Shown here one piece after another: positions 1 to 51,614 of a stretch of DNA of 52,982 nucleotides. The notes beneath the pieces were generated by a model, which searched no databases, was not told the DNA's origin, and saw only the letters and a list, made by a program, of their open reading frames with translations. Position numbers and translations under genes: made by a program. Location: IMG/VR virus record IMGVR_UViG_2558860288_000010. One strand, given 5' to 3'. Position 1 is the first letter of the stretch. Every line of letters begins with the position of its first letter. The DNA comes from a virus (lineage: Duplodnaviria; Heunggongvirae; Uroviricota; Caudoviricetes).

Positions 1-996
1 TTAAGCAGGGCTATTTTCAGCATTAGCTCTAACCACAGCTACCTCAACTGTGTCTTTCGCTATACTGTTGTAATAACTTTCTGTAAGCTCAGAAATAAGG
101 AAGTCATCCATCAATAATTTTATAAATAAATCCTTTGACACTTTCGTATCAAGAAGAATTTGAGTCCCATCTTCGGTAAATCTTATTTTACCTTTAAGCA
201 TAGGGTAGTTCTTACAGAAAATTATAATTTTGGCCGTTTCGATACCCCGCTGAATTACTGGAGAGGCTCTTGCAACTTTTGTTAATTTTCTTGCATATCT
301 TACATCTTGGATAAGCTCCGCTAATGCTTCAATATTTGAAACTATATTACGAGCCTCTATTGCAGCCATCCCAGACGTGGCCTCGCGAATAATCACTTCA
401 TGAAAACCAAATGATTTTTCTATAGTATCCAAATCAAATACAAATAACCCATCAGAGAATCTTAGCAATTGAAAGTTATCACTAATCCTAAAAAAATCAT
501 CATCAATCTTCTCGAATCTGGTTCTTGATTTTTTTAGAAAGAAATTTCTTCTTGAGAAAATATTAACGGGGGCCATGGTTTTATATAAAACCATTTGCTC
601 TCTCGCATCACCAATCTCAATAAGTAAGACCTTAATATTATTCACACCCTCTGTGGCAATATTATATAACTCATGATCATCAGTCTGTCTTACCTCATCG
701 AGAACTCTCAACTCCTCAGGTATTTCAAGATCATATTGATAGATGACCTTCACTCTCTCGTCTGATGCCGAAAGTTGTAATATTGACAATTCTTCATTTG
801 ATACAACATTGTCTCGGATATTGTCCATAAAAAGACTAATGAGCCCGCGTTGAGCATCTGGATCAATATCCATTTTTTTGGGGGTATTTGAATTTCTCGT
901 GAGTGCGTAGACAACTATTCCTAGCTGTGCTTGATTATCGATAAAATATTGAAACTTACGATCCAATGTTTCTTTATCATATATAATATCTGGCAT
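1..996 (-). CDS. Hypothetical 331-aa soluble protein, downstream partner of a membrane protein; candidate KwaB-like defense component
   Basis: Complete ORF with ATG start and AAGGG RBS 7 nt upstream. AT-rich. Sits 10 nt after the membrane-protein gene on the same strand; size and pairing fit the Kiwa architecture. No sequence-level confirmation possible here. Confidence 0.4.
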   Translation of the reverse strand: MPDIIYDKETLDRKFQYFIDNQAQLGIVVYALTRNSNTPKKMDIDPDAQRGLISLFMDNIRDNVVSNEELSILQLSASDERVKVIYQYDLEIPEELRVLDEVRQTDDHELYNIATEGVNNIKVLLIEIGDAREQMVLYKTMAPVNIFSRRNFFLKKSRTRFEKIDDDFFRISDNFQLLRFSDGLFVFDLDTIEKSFGFHEVIIREATSGMAAIEARNIVSNIEALAELIQDVRYARKLTKVARASPVIQRGIETAKIIIFCKNYPMLKGKIRFTEDGTQILLDTKVSKDLFIKLLMDDFLISELTESYYNSIAKDTVEVAVVRANAENSPA

Positions 997-1005
997 AGAA
1001 AACCC

Positions 1006-1650
1006 TTAATATCCTGAGTAGTAAACTCTATCATCAAGTTTTATATATTTTACTGAGTCGCCCATTTTAATTTTCTTCCTTGTTATAACTATAATCCCAT
1101 CTCTTTTTTCCCCTCCTTTGAAAACACCATCAAGTTTATAGATATGAAACCCCATCAACGCTAATGAAGGATTAGCATAAAAAAGATCTGTTTTAATATA
1201 AATAATCCCCATAACAACCAGCAACATAGCTAGAACAATTATGTATTTTGTTTTTTCGAAATCAAATGTTATTAATGGAATTACATAGGTTGCAAGAAAC
1301 GTTAAATGTTCATAATTTATACCTTCAACCTTCACAACTTCAAAAGGAATCTCGGTTGATTGTTTGATATCATATTTAAACTTAAAATACGCAACAATAC
1401 TATATAAAAAGAGGAGTGCACAAATAATAGCCACGACATTATTAGATATTAACTTTTCAAAACCTATAAACTTACATTTATCACCAAAACAGATTGGAAT
1501 ATCTATGGTGATAACTATAAAAAAGAAAAAAAGGAGTGATAATGAAAGAATATATAAATTAATCTTTCTGAAAATCATGCCTCCGCCACTATTCCTCATA
1601 TTGATTACTCCCATCATGAAACTATTACGATCATAACTGATATACTTCAT
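1006..1650 (-). CDS. Multi-pass membrane protein (214 aa), candidate KwaA-like
   Basis: ATG start. Translation has several long hydrophobic stretches (LYILSLSLLFFFFIVITI, VVAIICALLFLYSIVAYF, IIVLAMLLVVMGIIYI). AT-rich. Operon partner of 1..996. Confidence 0.4.
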   Translation of the reverse strand: MKYISYDRNSFMMGVINMRNSGGGMIFRKINLYILSLSLLFFFFIVITIDIPICFGDKCKFIGFEKLISNNVVAIICALLFLYSIVAYFKFKYDIKQSTEIPFEVVKVEGINYEHLTFLATYVIPLITFDFEKTKYIIVLAMLLVVMGIIYIKTDLFYANPSLALMGFHIYKLDGVFKGGEKRDGIIVITRKKIKMGDSVKYIKLDDRVYYSGY

Positions 1651-2174
1651 GTTTTAAATGCCACAAAGTAACACTATCCTACTCATAAAAATGCCATACC
1701 CAACAGATTTTATAGTAATTATACAATATTTAATAAGTTTTACTAAGCTACTGTTTTTATCTAAAAGATATCTCCTCTCAACTCCTAATGATAGACATAA
1801 AATATTCTCTCTATGACAGAAACAGCACTACACCGCACCCGCCTGCGGTTTTCATATCACTGAAGTTTTTCAGTTGGGATTTTTTACAAACGATACTTCC
1901 AGCCCGCGCCAGTGCTGGGGATGTACTGCGAGACAGGAACTGAAAAGAATGAAAGGAAATTCAGTTTTTTTCAGTTTTGCTATCCACCGATTCTGTTGCC
2001 AGAATACGCAACTCTTTGATGTTAAATGGATAATTAATTTTAGGTGTGATTTTTTATGAAGGATTGTGAAACAATAAAAACATAACACATTGAAATATAA
2101 TTATTTTATCTCTGTAGAAACTGAAATCCTATGACCAGACTCCGGGAACGGATCAACCATCCCCGGCGCACACT

Positions 2175-2447
2175 CTACCCGTTCTTTTGCGCAGCCAGCA
2201 GCAATTCTAAAGCCTTTTCCCGCCCCTCTGGTGGAATTGCATCAATCAGCTCTTTAACCCTTCCCTGCCCGTTCAGCGCGCTTGGGCTGACCGAATGGGA
2301 GAAAGCAACATTCATCACAAACGAGTGACCACACTCCACGTTAGAGCAATAGCAGTACACATCGTACAGCTGAGGGTGTTTTCTGTTTGTTTTACCGATC
2401 CGCGCGACTGCCTTACATGTTGGGCAGTACATTTTCATCATCTTCAT
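2175..2447 (-). CDS. Ogr/Delta-family zinc-finger late-gene activator (about 90 aa)
   Basis: Translation MKMMKMYCPTCKAVARIGKTNRK...YCYCSNVECGHSF has the C-x2-C...C-x4-C spacing of Ogr/Delta proteins. Start refined to the ATG at 2447 with an AAGGA RBS; the track ORF begins further upstream. Confidence 0.7.
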   Translation of the reverse strand: MKMMKMYCPTCKAVARIGKTNRKHPQLYDVYCYCSNVECGHSFVMNVAFSHSVSPSALNGQGRVKELIDAIPPEGREKALELLLAAQKNG

Positions 2448-2509
2448 CGTTTTATCCTTTTGCCCGCCAGAAAAAGGGATTCTGGTTCCCTGCCTCTTGT
2501 TCTGAACGT

Positions 2510-2697
2510 GTAACACTGGTAACACGCGTAACATCGTTGATTTAAATGAATTTAATCCGTTACCAGTTAACTAAATTAAGAGGTAACGCGTGGTAACACA
2601 CCGTTTTTTGTTACCACTGTTACCAGTACATATTTTTGACTGGTAACAGTGAAGAACCGCATCAGTAGCGGGTGTTACCTCTGTTACCAGTGTTACC
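2510..2697. repeat. Array of about 12 GGTAAC(A)/(T)GTTACC repeats in both orientations; candidate replication cis site (ori/crr-like)
   Basis: Counted directly: copies at 2510, 2518, 2528, 2559, 2582, 2592, 2610, 2619, 2642, 2674, 2683 and 2692, in the non-coding gap between the primase stop and the ogr stop. Confidence 0.6.
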
Positions 2698-2723: not shown

Positions 2724-5411
2724 TTACTCGGGATCGGCGCTTCCCAGTACCTGCGTATTGAACTGATACACTCGCTTAACCCCTATTTCTGGCAGGCGTA
2801 TGCTGTTTTGTGTCCGCCCGTCCTCACCGGCTTTCAGCCAGCCCGCATCCACACACAACCTGGCCACCTTACGTGAATCAAATCCTTTACAGATTTCCTT
2901 CCAGCCGGACGGCAGCACATAAAACGTCACCACCGGTTCTGTGGTGTTGTCGCCTTTGTCCACCTTCCTGAACCCCATCATTGAAAGCGGCCGGTTTCTG
3001 TCATCGTACCAGTCTGCAAAACGGCTGAACTGGTTTCGCGTCATGAAGTCGCGTACCTGTTCAAGCGCGGTTTTGTCTTCCTGATTGGCCGCATGACCAC
3101 GATCGGCCATCCACGACGCCAGGCAGCATTCAGCCGCCCGGAATGCCTCACCTTCCGGCCAGCCGGTGATCCCGGCCTGAGTGGCCAGCTCCCCGGCCAT
3201 CGCCACCAGAGCAAAACGGGTAACCACACGGCCAACCTGATTCCCGGCATTTTCTGGTGTCAGTCTGCGGGTATATTCTTTCAGCAGGGTTTTCGCCTGG
3301 CGGGTCAGCTCAGGCAGATCCCCGGTCAGACAGTACAGCCAGTCGCGGAAAGGCGTGCCGTGATAATGCACCACCGACTGTTCCAGATGTTCTGCCAGGG
3401 TCTTCCCGCCACTGAAGCCGTGCAGCTCCTCAAACACTCCATATTTACCGGAATCGCTGGGGATCTGGATCATCCTGACCTCCACCCCGGCATAGGTTCG
3501 TTCACCGGCGTTGGCCGCATGTTCCACCAGTGACAGCTCTCCGGTGGACAGAAACAGCAGATTCCAGCGGTTGGTTTCTCTCACAGAACCATCCGTTCTG
3601 GCTCTGGCTTTCCCCTGCCCGTTCGCCAGCATATAGGCAATGTTTCCCGCCTCCCTTCCGTCAACCTCCCGGATCTCATCGAGCATCAGGGTCGCATCAT
3701 TGCGACGGCTCGCCGTTCCTTCCAGCGCATTGCCGGTAGCCCGCCACGTGTGCCAGAAGTCCGTACCACCGCAGACCGATGCGGCCACTTTCATGGTCGT
3801 GGTTTTACCGTCCGTCGATTCCCCTTTCAGGTGATAGCCGCCGCCACTCACGCCAACCAGCGTCAGCAGCGGTGCAGCAAAGGCCAGACTCACCGCAAAC
3901 GCCAGGCGGGCATTGCTGACACAATAACGCCCGATATTTTCCCGCCACTCGTCAGAAGTACCGCTGACGCGAAAATCCCGCCCCTGTACACTCGACGTCT
4001 GCAAAATAACCGACTGGGCTTCACGGCCAATCACTTCGTCCTGCAGGACATACACGCCGCCATGCCAGCCGGTTTTATTCACACAAGTGACTTTTCTGTC
4101 TGGTTTACACAGGGACAGGTATTCCATCAGGAAAGCTCTGGCCATCCCGTTGATGTTGATATAAGAAAGACCATTAACCAGTAACACGCGGCGCAGCTCT
4201 TCCCCGCTGCCGCCCAGCATTTCCATCGGCATAGCCCACTTGCGGCTGTTACCGTTTGTGTCCTCCCACTCCAGCAGACGCCCATAATTACTGCCGTCTG
4301 CATCACAGGTGATCGCAGTCACCCGCAGCGGACTGCAAATCTTGATATTGCGGATTTCCGTATCGCCATCAGACTTGTTAACCAGTTTGTCATACCACAG
4401 GTATTCCTTGGTCAGCCTGAATCCCTGCGGCAGCCGGGTCTGCCCTTTACCGTGTAGCGTCATTTCCTCGCGGAAGGCTTCACGCGCCCGATCTTTACCC
4501 ACCTCCTGCCGGTAATCATCCCAGTCCGCCTTATGGCGTACCGGGGGAAGTGTCACCCAGCCATCCACCGCTTTAGCGGCTTTCTCAGCCTGAATACGTC
4601 CGGTATTTTCCTTCCCGTCAGCCAGATCATTATCTCCGGCCAGAATGATCCGGGTCTCCGGCCAGCGCTTTCGTACTTGCTCCGTCACTTTCAGCAAATT
4701 GGTGGCCGCAACAGCCGCCACGATCCACCCTTCAGCCAGAAGGCTGACGGTCAGCGCCGTGGCATAGCCCTCCGTGATGATCACCTGTTCAGGTGTTTCA
4801 GCGGGTATATCGTTAAGGGCAATGAATGCGCCGGACAGCTGGCTGCCGGGTAGCAGGCTTTTATCACCGTCAGGGTTGATAAGCTGGCCACCGGTAATAG
4901 TCCCGGCAATATCCGTCAGTGGTAGCAGCAGCGAACCGGCAGAAAATGTCATCCCGGCCAGATTCAGAGATTGCGCCAGCAGGGGGAGTGAATACCCGTG
5001 TAAGCCCTTATTTGTCAGATAGATCGGCTCACCGTTCCGGCACTGCTGTCTGAGTCGGGTATACCGCTGCGCGCCCGTTTCTTTTCCTGCCGCCTTTTTC
5101 CTGGCGGGCAAAGCGGGTTTCTCCAGCATTTCAGGTAATGCAAGCACCTCAGATACCACATCTGCGGCTTCCTTTACCTTTCTCCCGGTCACCAGACGAA
5201 CCAGATCCAGACCATCACCATGACCGCACTGATTACAAAACCAGGTACCCCGTCCCTCTTTATCGTCGAGACGAAAGCGATCTTTGCCGCCACAGGCCGG
5301 GCAGGCTCCATGACGCCCCGCTGGCGGCACTTTGATACCTAAAGCAGACAGAATATGTGGCCAGTGCCCGACAGCAGCACCTGAAACCGCAGACACAGGT
5401 TGATTCCTCAC
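2724..5411 (-). CDS. P4 alpha-like bifunctional primase/helicase (895 aa)
   Basis: N-terminal zinc-binding motif CPACGG...FCNQCGHGDGLDLV, a central TOPRIM-like region and a C-terminal NTPase region. GTG start overlapping the stop of the upstream gene. Confidence 0.8.
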   Translation of the reverse strand: MRNQPVSAVSGAAVGHWPHILSALGIKVPPAGRHGACPACGGKDRFRLDDKEGRGTWFCNQCGHGDGLDLVRLVTGRKVKEAADVVSEVLALPEMLEKPALPARKKAAGKETGAQRYTRLRQQCRNGEPIYLTNKGLHGYSLPLLAQSLNLAGMTFSAGSLLLPLTDIAGTITGGQLINPDGDKSLLPGSQLSGAFIALNDIPAETPEQVIITEGYATALTVSLLAEGWIVAAVAATNLLKVTEQVRKRWPETRIILAGDNDLADGKENTGRIQAEKAAKAVDGWVTLPPVRHKADWDDYRQEVGKDRAREAFREEMTLHGKGQTRLPQGFRLTKEYLWYDKLVNKSDGDTEIRNIKICSPLRVTAITCDADGSNYGRLLEWEDTNGNSRKWAMPMEMLGGSGEELRRVLLVNGLSYININGMARAFLMEYLSLCKPDRKVTCVNKTGWHGGVYVLQDEVIGREAQSVILQTSSVQGRDFRVSGTSDEWRENIGRYCVSNARLAFAVSLAFAAPLLTLVGVSGGGYHLKGESTDGKTTTMKVAASVCGGTDFWHTWRATGNALEGTASRRNDATLMLDEIREVDGREAGNIAYMLANGQGKARARTDGSVRETNRWNLLFLSTGELSLVEHAANAGERTYAGVEVRMIQIPSDSGKYGVFEELHGFSGGKTLAEHLEQSVVHYHGTPFRDWLYCLTGDLPELTRQAKTLLKEYTRRLTPENAGNQVGRVVTRFALVAMAGELATQAGITGWPEGEAFRAAECCLASWMADRGHAANQEDKTALEQVRDFMTRNQFSRFADWYDDRNRPLSMMGFRKVDKGDNTTEPVVTFYVLPSGWKEICKGFDSRKVARLCVDAGWLKAGEDGRTQNSIRLPEIGVKRVYQFNTQVLGSADPE

Positions 5412-5818
5412 AGCAGTCCCCCCTGGTCTTCCGGTTTCACAAACTCAAAATCTTCAGGGAGATCTCCATCAGGGGCACCAAAAATAATATCCCGGTAAAT
5501 CTCCCGCATCTCTGTGACACCAAAAACTGACAGGTGAATATTTTCTGACATGAAGCCAGGTTTAAGCATTTTTTCCAGTTGTTCCCCGGCCAGCATGCAA
5601 CCAACTTCGGCACCAAATTCAGTCACCCACGGCATTTCAATATGATAAATAATATTGCTCACGACTTTTTCGTGGGTGAGTTCTATTCGTTCGCCATCTT
5701 CAATATAAACCGGTTCATTATGAACACGCTCCATTAAGGAAATGAATGCATCAGCAATGTAGTACCGTAAGACTGCTGTTCGTAAAGCATGCGCCTTTAA
5801 ATTTTGATTATTATTCAT
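5408..5818 (-). CDS. Hypothetical protein (about 136 aa), translationally coupled to the primase
   Basis: Track ORF 5408..5878 begins at TTG. An internal ATG at 5818 (MNNNQNLKAH...) is preceded by an AGGGAGAG RBS. Stop overlaps the primase start. Confidence 0.45.
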   Translation of the reverse strand: MNNNQNLKAHALRTAVLRYYIADAFISLMERVHNEPVYIEDGERIELTHEKVVSNIIYHIEMPWVTEFGAEVGCMLAGEQLEKMLKPGFMSENIHLSVFGVTEMREIYRDIIFGAPDGDLPEDFEFVKPEDQGGLL

Positions 5819-6047
5819 CGCGCATCTCTCCCTTAATTGTGCTGGTTTCCTTAACAACGCCATCCAGTTGTTCGGCAATACAGGCCACTAAAGCCGCAGC
5901 GCCTTCCGCTGAAACAGTTCTCGCTCCATTCACTGTGGGAACGGACAGGACCTCTGCAAGAAACTCACTGGCCAGTGCCGCCCGTAACAGACGACTCTCA
6001 CCCAGTTCGCTCAATATGCAGCCTTGCTTAAAATTCATGGATTTCAT
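5811..6047 (-). CDS. Hypothetical small protein (78 aa)
   Basis: ATG start with a strong GGGAGGTG RBS. Overlaps the neighbouring genes by a few nt at both ends. Confidence 0.45.
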   Translation of the reverse strand: MKSMNFKQGCILSELGESRLLRAALASEFLAEVLSVPTVNGARTVSAEGAAALVACIAEQLDGVVKETSTIKGEMRDE

Positions 6048-6249: not shown

Positions 6250-6560
6250 TGGCAACCTCCGTTAGATAGCGGGTAACGCTACCACCGGAGTTCCTACGCT
6301 CATGGGTGGTAGCCCAGACGGGGGTAGGAATACCGGCTCTAACGGATACCGGCCAGCCCGAAAGCTGCCCCGCCTGGACTACCATAATTCTGATGATGTG
6401 GCGTAAAAAATAAAAACATGCAGTCAGCCACCACACCATAAATTTTAGGTGAGTCAAAGCTACGACACAAAAAAACACGCCTGGCGCGTGTTGTGTCGCC
6501 GTTAGATTACACGGGTTCCTACGCCCGGCTGCCGATTTTGCGGCAACCTTTAAACTATAT
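6250..6560 (-). ncRNA. Candidate C4/CI-type antisense RNA locus (satellite copy)
   Basis: Non-coding gap upstream of the small-gene/primase operon. Two hairpin-containing segments each carry ttcctacgc (6291..6299, 6517..6525), with a partly complementary gtaggaa segment between them (6324..6330), plus an 18-nt block tgccgattttgcggcaac (6530..6547) identical to 38449..38466. Strand inferred from the flanking genes. Confidence 0.35.
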
Positions 6561-6721
6561 CCCGCGCATTCCTGGTGAGGCAAGAAATTTATAACCGAAA
6601 ACTGAACATTGCCTGGATTAATTAACGCTGGCATGCTTAAGCCTCTGCTTAAAAATAGTTCTTCATTTTTCCTGATGCTGTAAACGAGACCCGCCTCTGA
6701 GCGGGTCTTTCTGTCGCGAAG

Positions 6722-7726
6722 TCAATCAGCAAACGTCAGGGCGCTCTCATCAACAGCCGCGTACAGTTCAGGTTCACCGAGTGCATAGCCTTCATTGCGC
6801 AGGTAGGAATGTACGTATTCACTGTTTTCATCATCAAACTCAGCACGAAACCACCGTGTTATCGCCTGAGTGTAAATATGCAGATTATCCAGCGTCGTTA
6901 CTGCCAGACGCTTACCCGGCATAAACGGGGGAATAAACGCAAAGCGGCCAGCAACAGAACTTGTAGCCATCTGTGCAGCATTCACATCAGCCGGGCGGTC
7001 TGCGGCATTAAATAACTTCAGGCGTTGATGTGCTGCCAGCTCTGCCCCAACCAGTACAACCAGACGAGGATCTTCACGAAACTGCTCAGCAATAAGCTCA
7101 GTAATCAGATGGTTGGCCAGAGCATCTATATTTTTCCAGGTGCCAGTCTCTCCCAGCATGACTGGCTCAGAGATGATTTGCTTTCCGTTCCCGTAGGCTT
7201 TCGCCAGTGCATGCCAGCCAATATTGACATCCTCGCCTTTTTTATTAATTTCCGGGTTTGTAGTATTTGCAATCGACACACCATTGAAACCGACCCGCAG
7301 CATGTCAAGCGCATATGCCTGGGCAAAAAAGCCCTCAACCGTTTTCTCAAACTCATCCGGCACGCCGGTATGGTAAATATGAGACATATCGGAATAGCTG
7401 ATCCGGGCGCAGGTATCCGTCTCGGTCAGAAAGAACTCCGTACCATTGATTGCCATTTTTTTGTGGAAACGGCCACCATCCACACGTCCGGTATGCAGTT
7501 CACTGGCACCAATATTGACGGCATTACCTGACACGGCGTTAACATCACGTAGGGTGATATTTTTAATAAGCCACCCGGATTCCAGAATTGAGGTACGCAG
7601 TATATTTTCAGTGGGTTCGCTTAATGCAAAGCGTCTGTTTGATTCTTCCTGATAGTTAGTGCCAGTGACGAATTTATTATGATAACGACGTGCTGCGTCC
7701 GGCCTTTCAGTTTTGAAGGCATACAT
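6722..7726 (-). CDS. P2 GpN-like major capsid protein homolog (334 aa)
   Basis: ATG with AAAGGTGA RBS. Motifs GFNGV, GW, EDPRLVVLVG and LDNLHIY match what I recall of P2-family capsid proteins. Needs an HMM or BLAST check. Confidence 0.45.
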   Translation of the reverse strand: MYAFKTERPDAARRYHNKFVTGTNYQEESNRRFALSEPTENILRTSILESGWLIKNITLRDVNAVSGNAVNIGASELHTGRVDGGRFHKKMAINGTEFFLTETDTCARISYSDMSHIYHTGVPDEFEKTVEGFFAQAYALDMLRVGFNGVSIANTTNPEINKKGEDVNIGWHALAKAYGNGKQIISEPVMLGETGTWKNIDALANHLITELIAEQFREDPRLVVLVGAELAAHQRLKLFNAADRPADVNAAQMATSSVAGRFAFIPPFMPGKRLAVTTLDNLHIYTQAITRWFRAEFDDENSEYVHSYLRNEGYALGEPELYAAVDESALTFAD

Positions 7727-7748
7727 AGCTTTTCACCTTTTTAAGTAT

Positions 7749-8621
7749 TTAAGAAAAGATTTTATTTTTGTACTCAGTAACCCGATTGTATTTCATTACA
7801 TGCTCAACATAATCCCGGTCACTTACGACTGAACGTAATACATTATTATCTGCTCGATAGTACTCCCTGTAAGCCATAGCTCTTGCCATTCCACCGTTAT
7901 TTAATACATAACGATCAGTTGGAACGCTACAACGGCTAATAATTTCACTCACAGAATCAGACAAAGATTTGAGTGCATCTGTAATAAATTTAATATCACG
8001 GACAACGTCACCGTCATTAAACACAGAAATAAAATCAGCAGGGATCTGGCCGGATTGAGGAAATATGTTCAGTAAACGCTTCTCAACTCCCTTACCAATG
8101 TAGTTAACTTCATCGGCCAGTACGCCCGGTAAAAGCTTGATTGTGCTCAGTCGGCTATGTTGCTCATTCAGCCGGGAAACGGCCAGATGGTAACACCGTT
8201 CAGCATCCGCTCGTTCAGCATGCCCCGTTTTATTCGTTTTGGCTTCAGCAATGCTACTGACGCCGTTTTTTGAGAATGTGCTTTTCCATGCAACTTCCGC
8301 ATTTGTCACTTCACGCTGCCGAAAAGATAACTCTTCCTCTTCCTGACGACACAACTGGGCATAACGGCTCAGGAGCAGGTTGATCTCATTCGCCACAGCT
8401 TCCGTATCAGGTACTGTTAACCCCGTAAGTGAATACAACTTTTCACCTTTAGCGCGCAGCTTATTCAGTGAATATATTTCAATAATACGCACAATACAGG
8501 CCGTGTCGCTATGAGTCTCTTTAAACGGGCTTACTTTATAGCTTCCTAACACGGAAACATATTCATTCTTAATTGGAAGGGATATGTATTGACTCCCCGC
8601 CGGTTGTAGACGGTAATTCAT
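7749..8621 (-). CDS. Hypothetical 290-aa protein immediately upstream of the capsid-like gene; possible scaffold
   Basis: ATG with GAGGAG RBS. Assignment rests only on gene order (scaffold-then-capsid as in P2 O-N); no sequence similarity recognised. Confidence 0.3.
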   Translation of the reverse strand: MNYRLQPAGSQYISLPIKNEYVSVLGSYKVSPFKETHSDTACIVRIIEIYSLNKLRAKGEKLYSLTGLTVPDTEAVANEINLLLSRYAQLCRQEEEELSFRQREVTNAEVAWKSTFSKNGVSSIAEAKTNKTGHAERADAERCYHLAVSRLNEQHSRLSTIKLLPGVLADEVNYIGKGVEKRLLNIFPQSGQIPADFISVFNDGDVVRDIKFITDALKSLSDSVSEIISRCSVPTDRYVLNNGGMARAMAYREYYRADNNVLRSVVSDRDYVEHVMKYNRVTEYKNKIFS

Positions 8622-8657: not shown

Positions 8658-8858
8658 TTACTCTGAAGAATGACTATCACGCCAAGCATAGTAGTCACCG
8701 GCACGCCATCGAGACATACGACCTAATTTGATTGGTTTAGGAAAACGACCTAGAGAAATCAGTTTATAAATCCATTTATCAGTAAACAGACAATCAGATG
8801 TAATGAATTTCATATCAATGAGCGAGTCAGCAGAAGGACGATTATCAGTAAACCCCAT
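8658..8858 (-). CDS. alpA: AlpA-family transcriptional regulator / excisionase-like protein (66 aa)
   Basis: Translation ...KWIYKLISLGRFPKPIKLGRMSRWRAGDYYAW matches the AlpA signature (GRFPKP.KLG). ATG at 8858 with GAGAGGAA RBS; the track ORF begins at TTG. Confidence 0.75.
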   Translation of the reverse strand: MGFTDNRPSADSLIDMKFITSDCLFTDKWIYKLISLGRFPKPIKLGRMSRWRAGDYYAWRDSHSSE

Positions 8859-8965
8859 AATGAGTTCCTCTCTATGTATCAATCTATATCAACGAAGAGG
8901 ATTAAAACATCGTTCAAAAATATAAAAAAGGCGAGTAAGCAAAAAATACTTACCCACCAATAATG

Positions 8966-9763
8966 TTAATTATTTGTAAAAATTGGTTTTTTGAAAATAC
9001 TAGCAATCATTTTGCAGATTACTTCGAATGATAAGGGCGGTTCTTTCTTATCAGGCCAAAATTCGGCTGCTCGGGAAAAAACAAGCTTTGTTAGCGCTGT
9101 AGCATTGTCTTTTTTGACATTAGAGTTTTCTTTGTAAAGATAAATGGCCACACTCAAAACTTGATTTCGCTTTATTGCATGTCGCTCTTGTTGTGCAATT
9201 GATAGCGACTTATATACCTCCGAAGAAGAAACATCATTATTAATAATATTATACAGTTTTCGAACATCATCGCTTTCTATATAGCCATCATGCTCAAAAA
9301 AAAGCCCATCAGAATTTTTCCAGTCTATCTGAAAGAACTTTATCTCTTCTGAAAACACTTCCCCTGCTGGAACAAGAAGAGATGGGTATACTGGGAATTG
9401 CCCACTAAAATAAATAAAATCCTTCTGGATTCCTGGTGGGTATTTAAAATAACCTTTTATACGTAAAATAACTAAATTCTTGTCATTTTTTATCTCATGT
9501 ATTTTTATGAGACTATATTGACTAATATAACTATACCCCTCGTCATCCTTATCCAATGAATCAAGATGATTAATAAATTCATTTATACATCTAACTCGAT
9601 GCTTTGAGAAATTACCCTCCCTGCCAACAGATGCAGAGAATGAAAGTTCATTCTCTCCTGCCAGATAAAAAACATCCGCCTCTTCGCAATTTAGCATCTT
9701 AGCAACTTCTGCTACTTGATAATGCGTGCGAAATAGTTTCAAAGGAATGGTTTTATTAGCCAT
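8966..9763 (-). CDS. Hypothetical AT-rich 265-aa protein, translationally coupled to the integrase
   Basis: ATG at 9761..9763 overlaps the integrase stop by 8 nt. Markedly AT-rich compared with the integrase and primase. No recognisable motif. Confidence 0.5.
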   Translation of the reverse strand: MANKTIPLKLFRTHYQVAEVAKMLNCEEADVFYLAGENELSFSASVGREGNFSKHRVRCINEFINHLDSLDKDDEGYSYISQYSLIKIHEIKNDKNLVILRIKGYFKYPPGIQKDFIYFSGQFPVYPSLLVPAGEVFSEEIKFFQIDWKNSDGLFFEHDGYIESDDVRKLYNIINNDVSSSEVYKSLSIAQQERHAIKRNQVLSVAIYLYKENSNVKKDNATALTKLVFSRAAEFWPDKKEPPLSFEVICKMIASIFKKPIFTNN

Positions 9764-10943
9764 TACGATTCATTCCCTCAATAAAATCAGCATACCATTG
9801 CATCATTTCTCTGCGTCCTTCCAGATATTGAGCATGGTTATAAATTCCGCGAATAGAATTTTTATCTAAATGAGCAAGCTGGGTTTCAATCCATGCACTG
9901 TTAAATCCTTTCTCATGCAGAATTGTACTCATCGTATGCCTGAAACCATGCCCCGTAACACGCCCTGCATATCCAATACGTTTAAACACCTGATTAATGC
10001 TTGCTTCACTCATAAATTTGCTAGGATCGTTGCGTCCAGGGAACATCAGCGGGTAGTTCCCAGTTAGTTCTTTCAAACATTTGAGATGGGATAATGCTTG
10101 TTTTGGCAACGGGACAATATGGCTCCTACGCATTTTCATACGTTCTTTTGGGATCTCCCACACCGCATTATCAAAATCCACCTCACGCCACTCACCTGCT
10201 CTTAGTTCTCCTGTTCTTAGACCCGTCAGGATAAGTAAATGTGCCCCCAGCAATACAATTGGGCTTCCTGAATAAGCGTTAAGGGCAGTAAAGAACTCCG
10301 GCAGCTCGTTGGCTTTGAGGAATGGATAGTGGACTGCTTCATGTCCTTGCATCGCACTGGCAAGATCCGGTGCAGGATTGTAGATTGCTCTACCCGTTAC
10401 GATGGCATAGCGGAAAACTTCACCGCATCGCTGACGGACTTTCTTCGCTTTCTCCATAGCACCTCGTGCTTCTATCAACCTCAGTACTTCAAGTAGTTCA
10501 AGGGGCTGAATATCGGCTATAGGTCTGTGTCCAATATGCGGGAAAATGTCTTTCTCAAACGCCTCAATTATGTCTGAAGCATAGCCCTCAGACCATTTGG
10601 GAGATTTCATTTTGTGCCACTCTAACGCCACTTCTCTAAATGGGTTAAGTGTCTCGATCGCTGCGTTTAAAGCATGCTTCTTTGCTTTTTTCACTTCGCC
10701 AGGATCTTCACCAGCGACGAGTAGTTTCTTTGCGTCTTCGCGTTTTTGTCTGGCATCGGCGAGGGTGACTGTTGGATAGACACCAAAGGACAAGCGCTTC
10801 TCTTTACCAGCAAAACGGTACTTCATACGCCAGTAACGCGAGCCATTAGGTTCAACCTGAAGGTACAGGCCACCTCCATCAGATAGCTTATAGCTCTTCT
10901 CTTTTCCTTTAGCGGCTTCAACCTTGCGGGCATTCAGCATCAT
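9756..10943 (-). CDS. int: P4-type tyrosine integrase
   Basis: N-terminal arm-binding-like region (KSYKLSDGGGLYLQVEPNGSRYWRMKYRF) and C-terminal catalytic region with HGFRHT and a Tyr near the C-terminus. Likely ATG-ATG start at 10943; the track start at 11012 is TTG. Sits 165 bp from the tRNA-derived repeat. Confidence 0.85.
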   Translation of the reverse strand: MMLNARKVEAAKGKEKSYKLSDGGGLYLQVEPNGSRYWRMKYRFAGKEKRLSFGVYPTVTLADARQKREDAKKLLVAGEDPGEVKKAKKHALNAAIETLNPFREVALEWHKMKSPKWSEGYASDIIEAFEKDIFPHIGHRPIADIQPLELLEVLRLIEARGAMEKAKKVRQRCGEVFRYAIVTGRAIYNPAPDLASAMQGHEAVHYPFLKANELPEFFTALNAYSGSPIVLLGAHLLILTGLRTGELRAGEWREVDFDNAVWEIPKERMKMRRSHIVPLPKQALSHLKCLKELTGNYPLMFPGRNDPSKFMSEASINQVFKRIGYAGRVTGHGFRHTMSTILHEKGFNSAWIETQLAHLDKNSIRGIYNHAQYLEGRREMMQWYADFIEGMNRNG

Positions 10944-11107
10944 TGGGGGCACATTTCCTAGACCGAACAGAACATGCCCCCGATTGTGCCCCCAATTGTA
11001 TGTTGATTTCAAGAGATAGGGGTTGACGTCAAATGACGAAGAATCGCGTAATAACTATGTTTTTAAAGGGTTTTGTTGATTTGAGATGACTTGGAAATAC
11101 TAAGGGA

Positions 11108-11153
11108 TGGTGCCGATAATAGGAGTCGAACCTACGACCTTCGCATTACGAAT
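11108..11153. repeat. 46-bp exact duplicate of the tRNA-Thr 3' end (att site between the two elements)
   Basis: tggtgccgataataggagtcgaacctacgaccttcgcattacgaat is identical to 51539..51584. Confidence 0.85.
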
Positions 11154-51524: not shown

Positions 51525-51538
51525 CTTATTGATTTAGA

Positions 51539-51614
51539 TGGTGCCGATAATAGGAGTCGAACCTACGACCTTCGCATTACGAATGCGCTGCTCTACCAAC
51601 TGAGCTATATCGGC
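51539..51614 (-). tRNA. thrW: tRNA-Thr (thrW-type), integration target
   Basis: Reverse complement reads GCCGATATAGCTCAGTTGGTAGAGCAGCGCATTCGTAATGCGAAGGTCGTAGGTTCGACTCCTATTATCGGCACCA (76 nt); its 3' 46 nt are duplicated at 11108..11153. Confidence 0.9.

Follow-up and report, generated by a model that had tools for sequence, protein, structure and literature searches.

A linked gene pair in a P4-like satellite element

The window analysed in this study is the whole 52,982-nt stretch of the viral record IMGVR_UViG_2558860288_000010. It harbors a satellite element with a P4-like backbone, in which two adjacent genes on the minus strand are the subject of this report: N', encoding a 334-amino acid (aa) protein, and the gene directly upstream of it, encoding a 290-aa protein to which we refer as the partner (Table 1). 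An earlier note, made from the sequence alone, had presented these two open reading frames (ORFs) as a scaffold-like and a P2 GpN-like capsid gene of a P4-type satellite. Both ORFs were recovered at their coordinates, separated by 22 nt and each with a plausible ribosome-binding site, and the arrangement of an upstream gene followed by a capsid gene is, as the note had it, that of O followed by N in P2; ESSI2_ev015 has this order too.

By sequence and by predicted structure, the N' protein is a full-length homolog of the P2-family major capsid protein with an HK97 fold. It matches the Pfam family PF05125 (Phage_cap_P2) at 225.5 bits, with a gathering cutoff of 27 (E=1.2e-66, covering 16-325 of the 327 profile positions), and reaches 287 bits with PHROG 70 “major head protein”. 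It stays below the curated equivalog cutoff of the NCBIfam model TIGR01551 “major_capsid_P2” (200.1 vs 219.65 bits), and its label from the Prokaryotic Genome Annotation Pipeline (PGAP) is “P2 family phage major capsid protein”. The protein contains RVGFNGVSIA, REDPRLVVLVGAEL and TTLDNLHIYTQ; the three motifs that had been named from the sequence, GFNGV, EDPRLVVLVG and LDNLHIY, are present and line up with GFNGV, EDPDLVVIVG and LENLSIY of P2 GpN. A sequence search of the PDB returned two solved structures, the capsid of the P2-like phage phiRSA1 (7oz4, E=7e-21) and, for GpN, the P4 procapsid (7jw1, E=1e-15). Similarly, a Foldseek search with the AlphaFold (AF2) model of N' placed 7jw1 at the top (E=5e-15, TM 0.59-0.65), followed by 7oz4 and then by the procapsid of SaPIbov5, which contains Ccm, and other HK97-fold shells; family and fold support, for which the earlier note had proposed to look, was therefore found on both counts.

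The likeness to P2 stands at the level of the family and not at that of close relationship. Identity to P2 GpN is only 25%, as compared to 48-50% with the capsids of ESSI-2-like peduoviruses, a set comprising Seongnamvirus ESSI-2, Quadragintavirus ESSI2_ev015, ev040 and ev129, and Yersinia phage vB_YenM_324. In a neighbour-joining tree rooted on P2, the satellite capsids (25 distinct sequences) form a single clade that is sister to the ESSI-2-like phage capsids and stands apart from all phage capsids. N' is collinear with the helper-type capsids, with 105 common conserved columns vs 21 fixed differences; its first ~30 residues are unlike those of the phage clade, and the short C-terminal tail of the phage-clade capsids is missing. 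The counterpart of these first residues in P2 is the N-arm segment, which faces the inside of the procapsid and is cut off by GpO (PMC7552001). Of the 25 satellite sequences, 24 retain the context x-R-x-F|S/A of the GpO cleavage site (the F residue is likewise retained in 24 of 25), which aligns as KKF|T in P2, RYF|S in ESSI2 and RRF|A in N' of the window. The ratio of nonsynonymous to synonymous substitution rates (dN/dS) of N' is 0.07-0.18, indicating purifying selection, and to judge from such ratios the gene is selectively maintained.

For the partner, Pfam, NCBIfam, PADLOC and the PDB sequences gave no match, and its one PHROG match is weak and probably spurious (phrog_6880, E 6e-4). No homolog was found among 50,697 phage records, and when 1.84 billion representatives were searched exhaustively by profile, only 54 proteins emerged; the full-length ones measure 276-308 aa, about one third are short fragments and two long ones match weakly. 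Its AF2 model is built of long helices (predicted local distance difference test, pLDDT, 87; predicted TM score, pTM, 0.79), for which the fold search yielded generic coiled-coil matches only. As far as sequence comparison can tell, the partner is an orphan family. It is fast-evolving, with a dN/dS of 0.11-0.61 that still indicates purifying selection. Homologs lie directly upstream of N' in elements of Serratia, Providencia and Salmonella, and align with the window partner at hhalign probabilities of 99.7% (Serratia), 99.1% (Providencia) and 96.7% (a second Salmonella clade).

The C-termini of the partners (window ~7749-7775; loci L033, L034 and L006) end in K-x-K-[IL]-F-S or, in Xenorhabdus, in K-L-N-[FY]-M, loosely resembling the G-K-F-[KN]-[FY]-[LI] ending of the ESSI-2-like GpO scaffolds. 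The partner C-terminus may mimic a capsid-binding tail, although the motif is too short to serve as evidence.

Distribution of the pair and of a split GpO

One genome per species was scanned and the best 80 loci were sorted by their neighbouring genes. The satellite type accounts for 28 of these 80 loci, in ~24 genomes, and combines N' and the partner with an alpha-type primase, delta and ash. Three further elements beyond the 28 surveyed loci carry the linked pair, bringing the total to ~27 genomes across Enterobacterales. Neither these three nor the 28 satellite-type loci possess portal, terL, terS, gpL, sid or psu. The phage type comprises the other 52 loci, all 52 with GpO, most with portal, terL, terS and gpL (a few loci are incomplete) and none with the partner gene. 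Homologs of the partner accompany N' in every sufficiently complete satellite locus, and the fixed synteny, together with the monophyly of the capsids, extends over at least three families of Enterobacterales. Three loci bear Firmicutes labels, L031 (“Vagococcus sp. WN89Y”) and L052 and L070 (“Bacillota” and “Bacillales” metagenome-assembled genomes). Since their sequence is that of an enterobacterial satellite or an ESSI-2-like phage, L052 being nearly identical to ESSI2_ev015, contamination or mis-binning is the most likely source of these labels.

In 14 satellite loci from Yersiniaceae, Pectobacteriaceae and Morganellaceae (L006-L008, L026-L030, L032-L036 and L092), a gene encoding 173-177 aa is found just downstream of N'. 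The match of its products to Pfam Phage_GPO is limited to the protease part (profile 3-178 of 268), the scaffolding domain being missing, and they share a conserved C-terminal W-x-S/A-A-I-S-x-G motif. The positions aligned with D19, H48 and S107 of P2 GpO are invariant; these three residues were reportedly found by Chang et al. in 2009 to be needed for protease activity. Thus, the two functions of GpO appear, on the basis of these alignments, to have been separated in the relatives, with the protease kept and the scaffolding domain gone, and the partner, because the GpO fragment consists of the protease only, occupies the place of the scaffold upstream of N'. GpO is dispensable for shell assembly once Sid is given as an alternative scaffold (PMC7552001). 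The E. coli lineage of the window has lost the GpO-fragment gene.

Within E. coli, 450 of 5,426 complete genomes (8.3%) carry the pair at no less than 95% nucleotide identity. An ESSI-2-like head module, counted at 80% query coverage or more, was detected in 29 of the same genomes (~0.5%), and at least 4 genomes have both; natural carriers of the two include E. coli TK3887 and LR778142/146/152. Identity between the window and locus L014 reaches 99% for the primase, 91% for N' and 79% for the partner. For the window against L014, L015 and others, the synonymous divergence (dS) of the partner/N' module is 0.62-0.66 and that of the primase 0.08. Such a much faster divergence of the module suggests that the capsid module has been swapped among satellite backbones.

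Packaging site and helper

The region around the cohesive-end site (cos) of the element shows 73-77% identity to the cos regions of ESSI-2 and ESSI2_ev015, with ~160 nt of homology flanking a 15-nt core. This core, GCGGGTGCGGTGTAG, is exactly the repeat found at both termini of the ESSI-2 record NC_047854, which is taken to be the ESSI-2 cohesive end. It was found in all 26 satellite loci that reach this position, in 25 of them exactly and in one with a single mismatch, always 330-500 nt downstream of the delta gene and in genera ranging from Escherichia to Xenorhabdus and Proteus. Among viral contigs, the 15-mer occurs in 80; since chance matches were expected, these were filtered by homology of the flanks, leaving 67, most of them 27-34 kb long. 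The resident ESSI-2-like prophage of E. coli TK3887 and the satellite of that strain agree in every base of the cos core. The P2/P4 cos core, taken here to be the 19-mer GGCGAGGCGGGGAAAGCAC, has no match in the window or in E. coli BCE049 even when 3 mismatches are allowed.

The capsid gene and the packaging site independently indicate one phage group. Because of the capsid identity and the exact ESSI-2 cos core, ESSI-2-like peduoviruses, not P2, are the likely helpers of the satellite, as read from sequence. Their genomes measure 28.8-30.9 kb vs ~11.1-11.3 kb for the satellite.

In the window, the satellite lies in tandem with an unrelated prophage of ~40 kb (~11.2-51.5 kb) at the thrW tRNA-Thr gene (51537-51614), beside proA, and the 3' 48 nt of the tRNA recur exactly at the junction between the two. 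This prophage, whose tail is contractile, was considered as a helper and rejected: its portal is of the lambda family, and it has a GpA terminase and encodes a ClpP-capsid fusion, so that it is only a tandem neighbour at thrW and not a plausible helper. As for the deposited record of ESSI2_ev015 (NC_049395, locus L012), bases ~17-48 hold an adapter-like sequence, TCGTCGGCAGCGTCAGATGTGTATAAGAGACAG, presumably a remnant of the Nextera transposase adapter, and 3 bases of the cos core are lost at the junction, so its termini are not clean.

Gene content of the element

The satellite is integrated at tRNA-Thr and, as derived from the att repeats, spans ~11.3 kb in the window and 11.1 kb in E. coli TK3887; sequence identity with a second copy, from E. 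coli BCE049, reaches as far as 11153. Its order on the minus strand is int, the 265-aa ORF, a terminator, alpA, partner, N', the immunity RNAs, Ash/Icd, the orf106-like gene, primase, Ogr/Delta, cos and Kiwa, with the partner and N' placed between vis/alpA and the immunity region of an otherwise P4-like “left operon”. The ORFs were compared with Pfam, PHROG, NCBIfam and PADLOC, and the features are listed in Table 1.

Table 1. Features of the satellite element, with the partner and N' genes first and the remaining features in their order on the minus strand
Feature	Position	Strand	Description
Partner, 290 aa	7749-8621	-	All-helical orphan (AF2 model); ATG start, GAGGAG Shine-Dalgarno
N', 334 aa	6722-7726	-	P2-family HK97-fold capsid homolog by sequence and model; ATG start
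att repeat	11106-11153	.	Exact copy of the tRNA-Thr 3' 48 nt (51537-51584); int-proximal satellite end
Tyrosine integrase	9756-11012	-	Pfam Arm-DNA-bind_3, Phage_int_M, Phage_integrase; 43% identity to P4 Int (BLASTP)
265-aa protein, co-transcribed with int	8966-9763	-	No family in Pfam, PHROGs, NCBIfam or PADLOC
Intrinsic terminator	8930-8958	-	12-bp stem and T-run; divides int-orf265 from alpA-partner-N'
AlpA/Vis-like regulator	8658-8858	-	First gene of the alpA-partner-N' unit; PGAP “helix-turn-helix transcriptional regulator”
GC-rich hairpin, weak T-tract	6687-6706	-	Directly after the N' stop; GACCCGCTCAGAGGCGGGTC
P4-type immunity RNAs	6302-6547	-	IsrK 6470-6547; C4/CI RNA 6302-6389
Ash/Icd-like ORF, 196 aa	6044-6634	-	Pfam Phage_ASH 118 bits; NCBIfam Icd-like domain
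P4 orf106-like (DUF5375-like) protein	5408-5878	-	PHROG 5991 122 bits; weak DUF5375 match
Primase/replicase	2724-5411	-	Pfam Zn_Ribbon_Prim, Toprim_3, DUF927
Ogr/Delta-type zinc-finger late activator	2175-2534	-	Pfam PF04606 51 bits; weakly similar to P4 delta
cos region	1815-1977	-	15-nt core at 1828-1842
Kiwa defence cargo	1-1650	-	kwaA 1006-1650, kwaB 1-996; cos-adjacent hotspot

The AlpA-like gene of the window falls just under the cutoff of Pfam Phage_AlpA (E=5e-4), and relatives carry a clear Phage_AlpA gene at the matching position. Both immunity RNAs score above the Rfam gathering thresholds (RF01394, 71.8 bits; RF01695, 81 bits), in a region with 84-87% nucleotide identity to P4 8428-8690. 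Since the Ash/Icd-like ORF overlaps the IsrK and C4/CI RNA genes, its 5' half is probably non-coding. The primase is chimeric with respect to P4 alpha: similarity, at 41%, is confined to the first ~320 aa, which hold the zinc ribbon and Toprim, while DUF927 makes up the C-terminal half. The 265-aa ORF overlaps the integrase stop codon, ends at the strong terminator and has homologs in only some related satellites. The hairpin following N' failed the T-run rule of the terminator scan. Kiwa is complete in the window (NCBIfam KwaA, 234 bits, and KwaB, 347 bits; PADLOC KwaA); Providencia relatives carry Kiwa at the matching position and other relatives other cargo, so the P4-style defence hotspot persists in this lineage devoid of sid and psu. 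For the partner, N' and the 265-aa neighbour, PADLOC gave no match.

Neither the window element nor the related satellite loci gave a phmmer match for Sid or Psu, which were looked for in every ORF of at least 50 aa; the window element has no match to Pfam Psu either. With all larger ORFs accounted for, the window element has no homolog of portal, terL, terS or gpL, nor any other head-completion gene, leaving N' as the lone head or packaging-type gene besides the putative role of the partner. The core of P4-like satellites was defined as Int, Psu, Delta, Sid, AlpA, Ash/epsilon and Alpha (PMC10085698, PMC13586616). The present element has Int, an AlpA-type regulator, the Ash region, the Alpha primase and Delta, the AlpA match and the delta similarity being weak. 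As sid, psu and the P2 cos (the 19-mer given above) are not among its contents, it is not a canonical P4-like satellite; the P4-type assignment of the earlier note is accurate for the backbone and does not extend to the type itself. It is not a capsid-forming phage-inducible chromosomal island (cf-PICI) either, since portal, adaptor, connector and terminase are absent, and in that sense the suggestion of a capsid-forming satellite was not borne out.

A proposed capsid-assembly module

We consider it about an even chance that the partner and N' form a private capsid-assembly module, producing small capsids for a P4-related satellite that depends on ESSI-2-like helpers. Timing of expression, partner role, assembly and capsid size are what we infer here, as follows. 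Upon infection or induction of the helper, the unit led by alpA would express the partner and N'. As a private scaffold or determinant of size, the partner would take over from the C-terminal scaffolding domain of GpO and would steer N' into small, roughly T=4-sized procapsids on the helper portal. N' would then be trimmed at the conserved GpO cleavage site, by the helper GpO in the E. coli lineage of the window and by the satellite's own GpO fragment in the relatives from Yersiniaceae, Pectobacteriaceae and Morganellaceae. The helper terminase would package one satellite genome from the common cos, and the head-completion proteins, tail and lysis functions of the helper would complete the particle. 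For the partner, its position, helical fold and strict co-occurrence with N' and the split GpO of the relatives are what make a scaffold or size determinant a working hypothesis. A broader proposition, which we hold more tentatively and at somewhat short of an even chance, is that a widespread P4-derived lineage has swapped Sid and Psu for its own capsid protein and a new helical scaffold, in some members with a protease, and builds whole small shells, for which ESSI-2-like peduoviruses would supply no more than portal, terminase, head-completion proteins and tail.

Several points weigh against such a module. The AF2 model of N' is of moderate confidence (pLDDT 62). The partner, described in the earlier note as scaffold-like, did not live up to that description: the comparison with P2 GpO gave a BLASTP E of 0.5 and no match to Pfam PF05929, that with the ESSI2 scaffold an hhalign probability of 0.8%, and those with P4 Sid and P4 Psu no sequence, profile or fold similarity, so that similarity to any scaffold was not detected by sequence or fold. 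A shell of N' would need to fit the portal, head-completion protein and terminase of the helper, and the E. coli lineage of the window has no GpO protease gene of its own. No P2-type activator box (TGT-N12-ACA) lies upstream of the window alpA, nor is one conserved across the 28 satellites, and the counts of this pattern across the window are no higher than chance; in view of this lack of a conserved Ogr/Delta box, the helper-coupled late expression of alpA-partner-N' is an assumption. Finally, in the E. coli phage-inducible chromosomal island (PICI) EcCICFT073, a capsid homolog did not explain interference and the island was packaged in full-size capsids (PMC6092414, PMC6893505), showing that a capsid homolog is no guarantee of size redirection.

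Perhaps N' makes up only part of the shell. A possible, though rather doubtful, alternative is that N' co-assembles with the helper capsid protein into mixed shells, for example at the pentameric vertices, biasing them towards the small size, while the partner stabilises or targets N'. The lone experimentally solved precedent is of this kind, Ccm being found in the pentamers of T=4 SaPIbov5 procapsids (PMC8569155), and that procapsid is among the Foldseek matches of N'. Moreover, N' keeps most of the capsid-conserved positions in common with the helper clade (the 105 columns mentioned above), and the E. coli lineage of the window has neither a protease nor a portal of its own. However, Ccm acts without a dedicated partner, whereas the satellite pair is always linked; the satellite capsids branch as one deep clade, which does not track the capsids of the local helpers but evolves on its own; and the protease of the relatives suggests a more self-contained module.

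It is improbable, in our estimation, that N' and the partner serve for interference only, as a decoy to poison or sequester the capsid assembly of the helper, while the satellite rides in heads made by the helper. Satellites do commonly interfere with their helpers (PMC6893505), this element also bears the Kiwa defence system, and the excess of the pair over ESSI-2-like head modules in complete E. coli genomes (8.3% vs ~0.5%) as well as the divergence of the module, which outpaces that of the primase as under arms-race pressure, would fit such a role. Yet a decoy needs no cleavage site, no full set of capsid-conserved residues and no intact protease as present in the relatives, and PADLOC recognised neither protein. 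To fill 30-kb heads, an 11-kb genome without a size-redirection gene would, in addition, need to be packaged in multimeric form.

That the pair is mere debris of the head genes of a degraded P2-like prophage, as its PGAP capsid label beside hypothetical proteins and its NCBIfam score under the equivalog cutoff could hint, is effectively excluded by the linkage, clade and selection results, namely intact ORFs under purifying selection and monophyly with fixed synteny in at least three Enterobacterales families. A partner without any phage homolog and a nucleotide identity of 95% or more in 450 genomes of E. coli speak against it as well.

Significance for satellite biology

Should the satellite indeed build whole small shells of its own, the lineage would represent a natural intermediate between capsid-hijacking and capsid-forming satellites, and the orphan partner, a candidate capsid size determinant, would represent a new class of these. 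It would also show the move of a P4-type backbone to another helper group by a swap of the capsid module and cos. Satellites are usually grouped into capsid reshapers (P4, SaPI1 and PLE) and whole-head encoders (cf-PICIs); having a capsid protein and a putative scaffold without portal and terminase, the present lineage would fall between the two groups.

The literature searched, which left most subscription journals outside, gave no account of a P4-like satellite with a GpN homolog. Surveys of P4-like satellites and their hotspots rely on psu, sid and other core genes and leave a capsid homolog unmentioned (PMC8628076, PMC10085698, PMC9122126, PMC13586616), while for enterobacterial PICIs a “capsid morphogenesis” gene is recognised among the components. 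A detection scheme built around psu and sid would probably overlook or rank low a lineage whose module is present in about one of 12 complete E. coli genomes and which carries defence cargo such as Kiwa. Satellite censuses and hotspot surveys may therefore undercount. A matched, orthogonal pair of capsid and scaffold could, furthermore, serve for engineered small transducing particles.

Comparison with known systems

The closest backbone is that of P4, with which the element shares the integrase (43%), a Vis/AlpA-like regulator, C4/CI-RNA immunity (84-87%), an orf106-like gene, the primase N-terminus (41%), an Ogr/Delta-type activator, a cos-adjacent defence hotspot, a size of ~11 kb and a cos copied from a peduovirus helper. 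P4 itself, with P2 as helper, relies on Sid as an external scaffold and on Psu for decoration, whereas the present satellite has neither sid nor psu and carries instead a capsid homolog and an orphan helical protein between alpA/vis and the immunity region. It differs further in the position of delta after the primase, in its ESSI-2-type cos and in the DUF927 that forms the C-terminal half of its primase.

As in the case of SaPIbov5 Ccm, a diverged HK97-fold homolog of the helper capsid is encoded by a cos-packaged satellite that has no terminase or portal (PMC8569155). Ccm was demonstrated to redirect the capsids of phi12 (PMC8569155), a function that for N' is only surmised, and is ~23% identical to the helper capsid protein (PMC6893505), as compared to ~49% for N' and helper-type capsids. 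In addition, Ccm stems from another capsid lineage and a Gram-positive host, and has no obligate partner. By analogy, N' would work most like Ccm, with the addition of a dedicated second protein as P4 has in Sid.

Like cf-PICIs, the satellite is an int-alpA-primase island with its own major capsid gene, cf-PICIs using the tails and lysis of their helpers (PMC10085698). Unlike them, it has no portal, protease, head-tail adaptor and connector or TerS, nor the TerL that they often encode, and its capsid lineage differs. The PICIs of Gram-negative bacteria, EcCICFT073 (c1499) and PmCI172, are likewise int-alpA-pri islands with a single capsid-like gene of unproven role, and PmCI172, in which a capsid homolog is encoded, forms capsids of small size (PMC6092414, PMC6893505). 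Their helpers, however, are lambdoid or Mu-like and their packaging is redirected by TerS or in the Rpp manner, while our satellite combines P4 immunity RNAs, Ogr/Delta and the cos of a peduovirus with a capsid protein of the P2 family that has a partner dedicated to it.

With the gpO-gpN module of P2, ESSI-2 and ESSI2_ev015, the pair has in common the gene order, the capsid family, the cleavage context and, in the relatives, the GpO protease domain. It departs from that module in that the upstream gene is unrelated to gpO, the GpO fragment follows the capsid gene and has no scaffolding domain, and the N-arm and C-terminus of the satellite capsid differ from those of the phage clade. If the partner and N' do act as a private capsid-assembly module, the element would stand between P4, which reshapes a stolen capsid via Sid, and the cf-PICIs, which encode a whole head.

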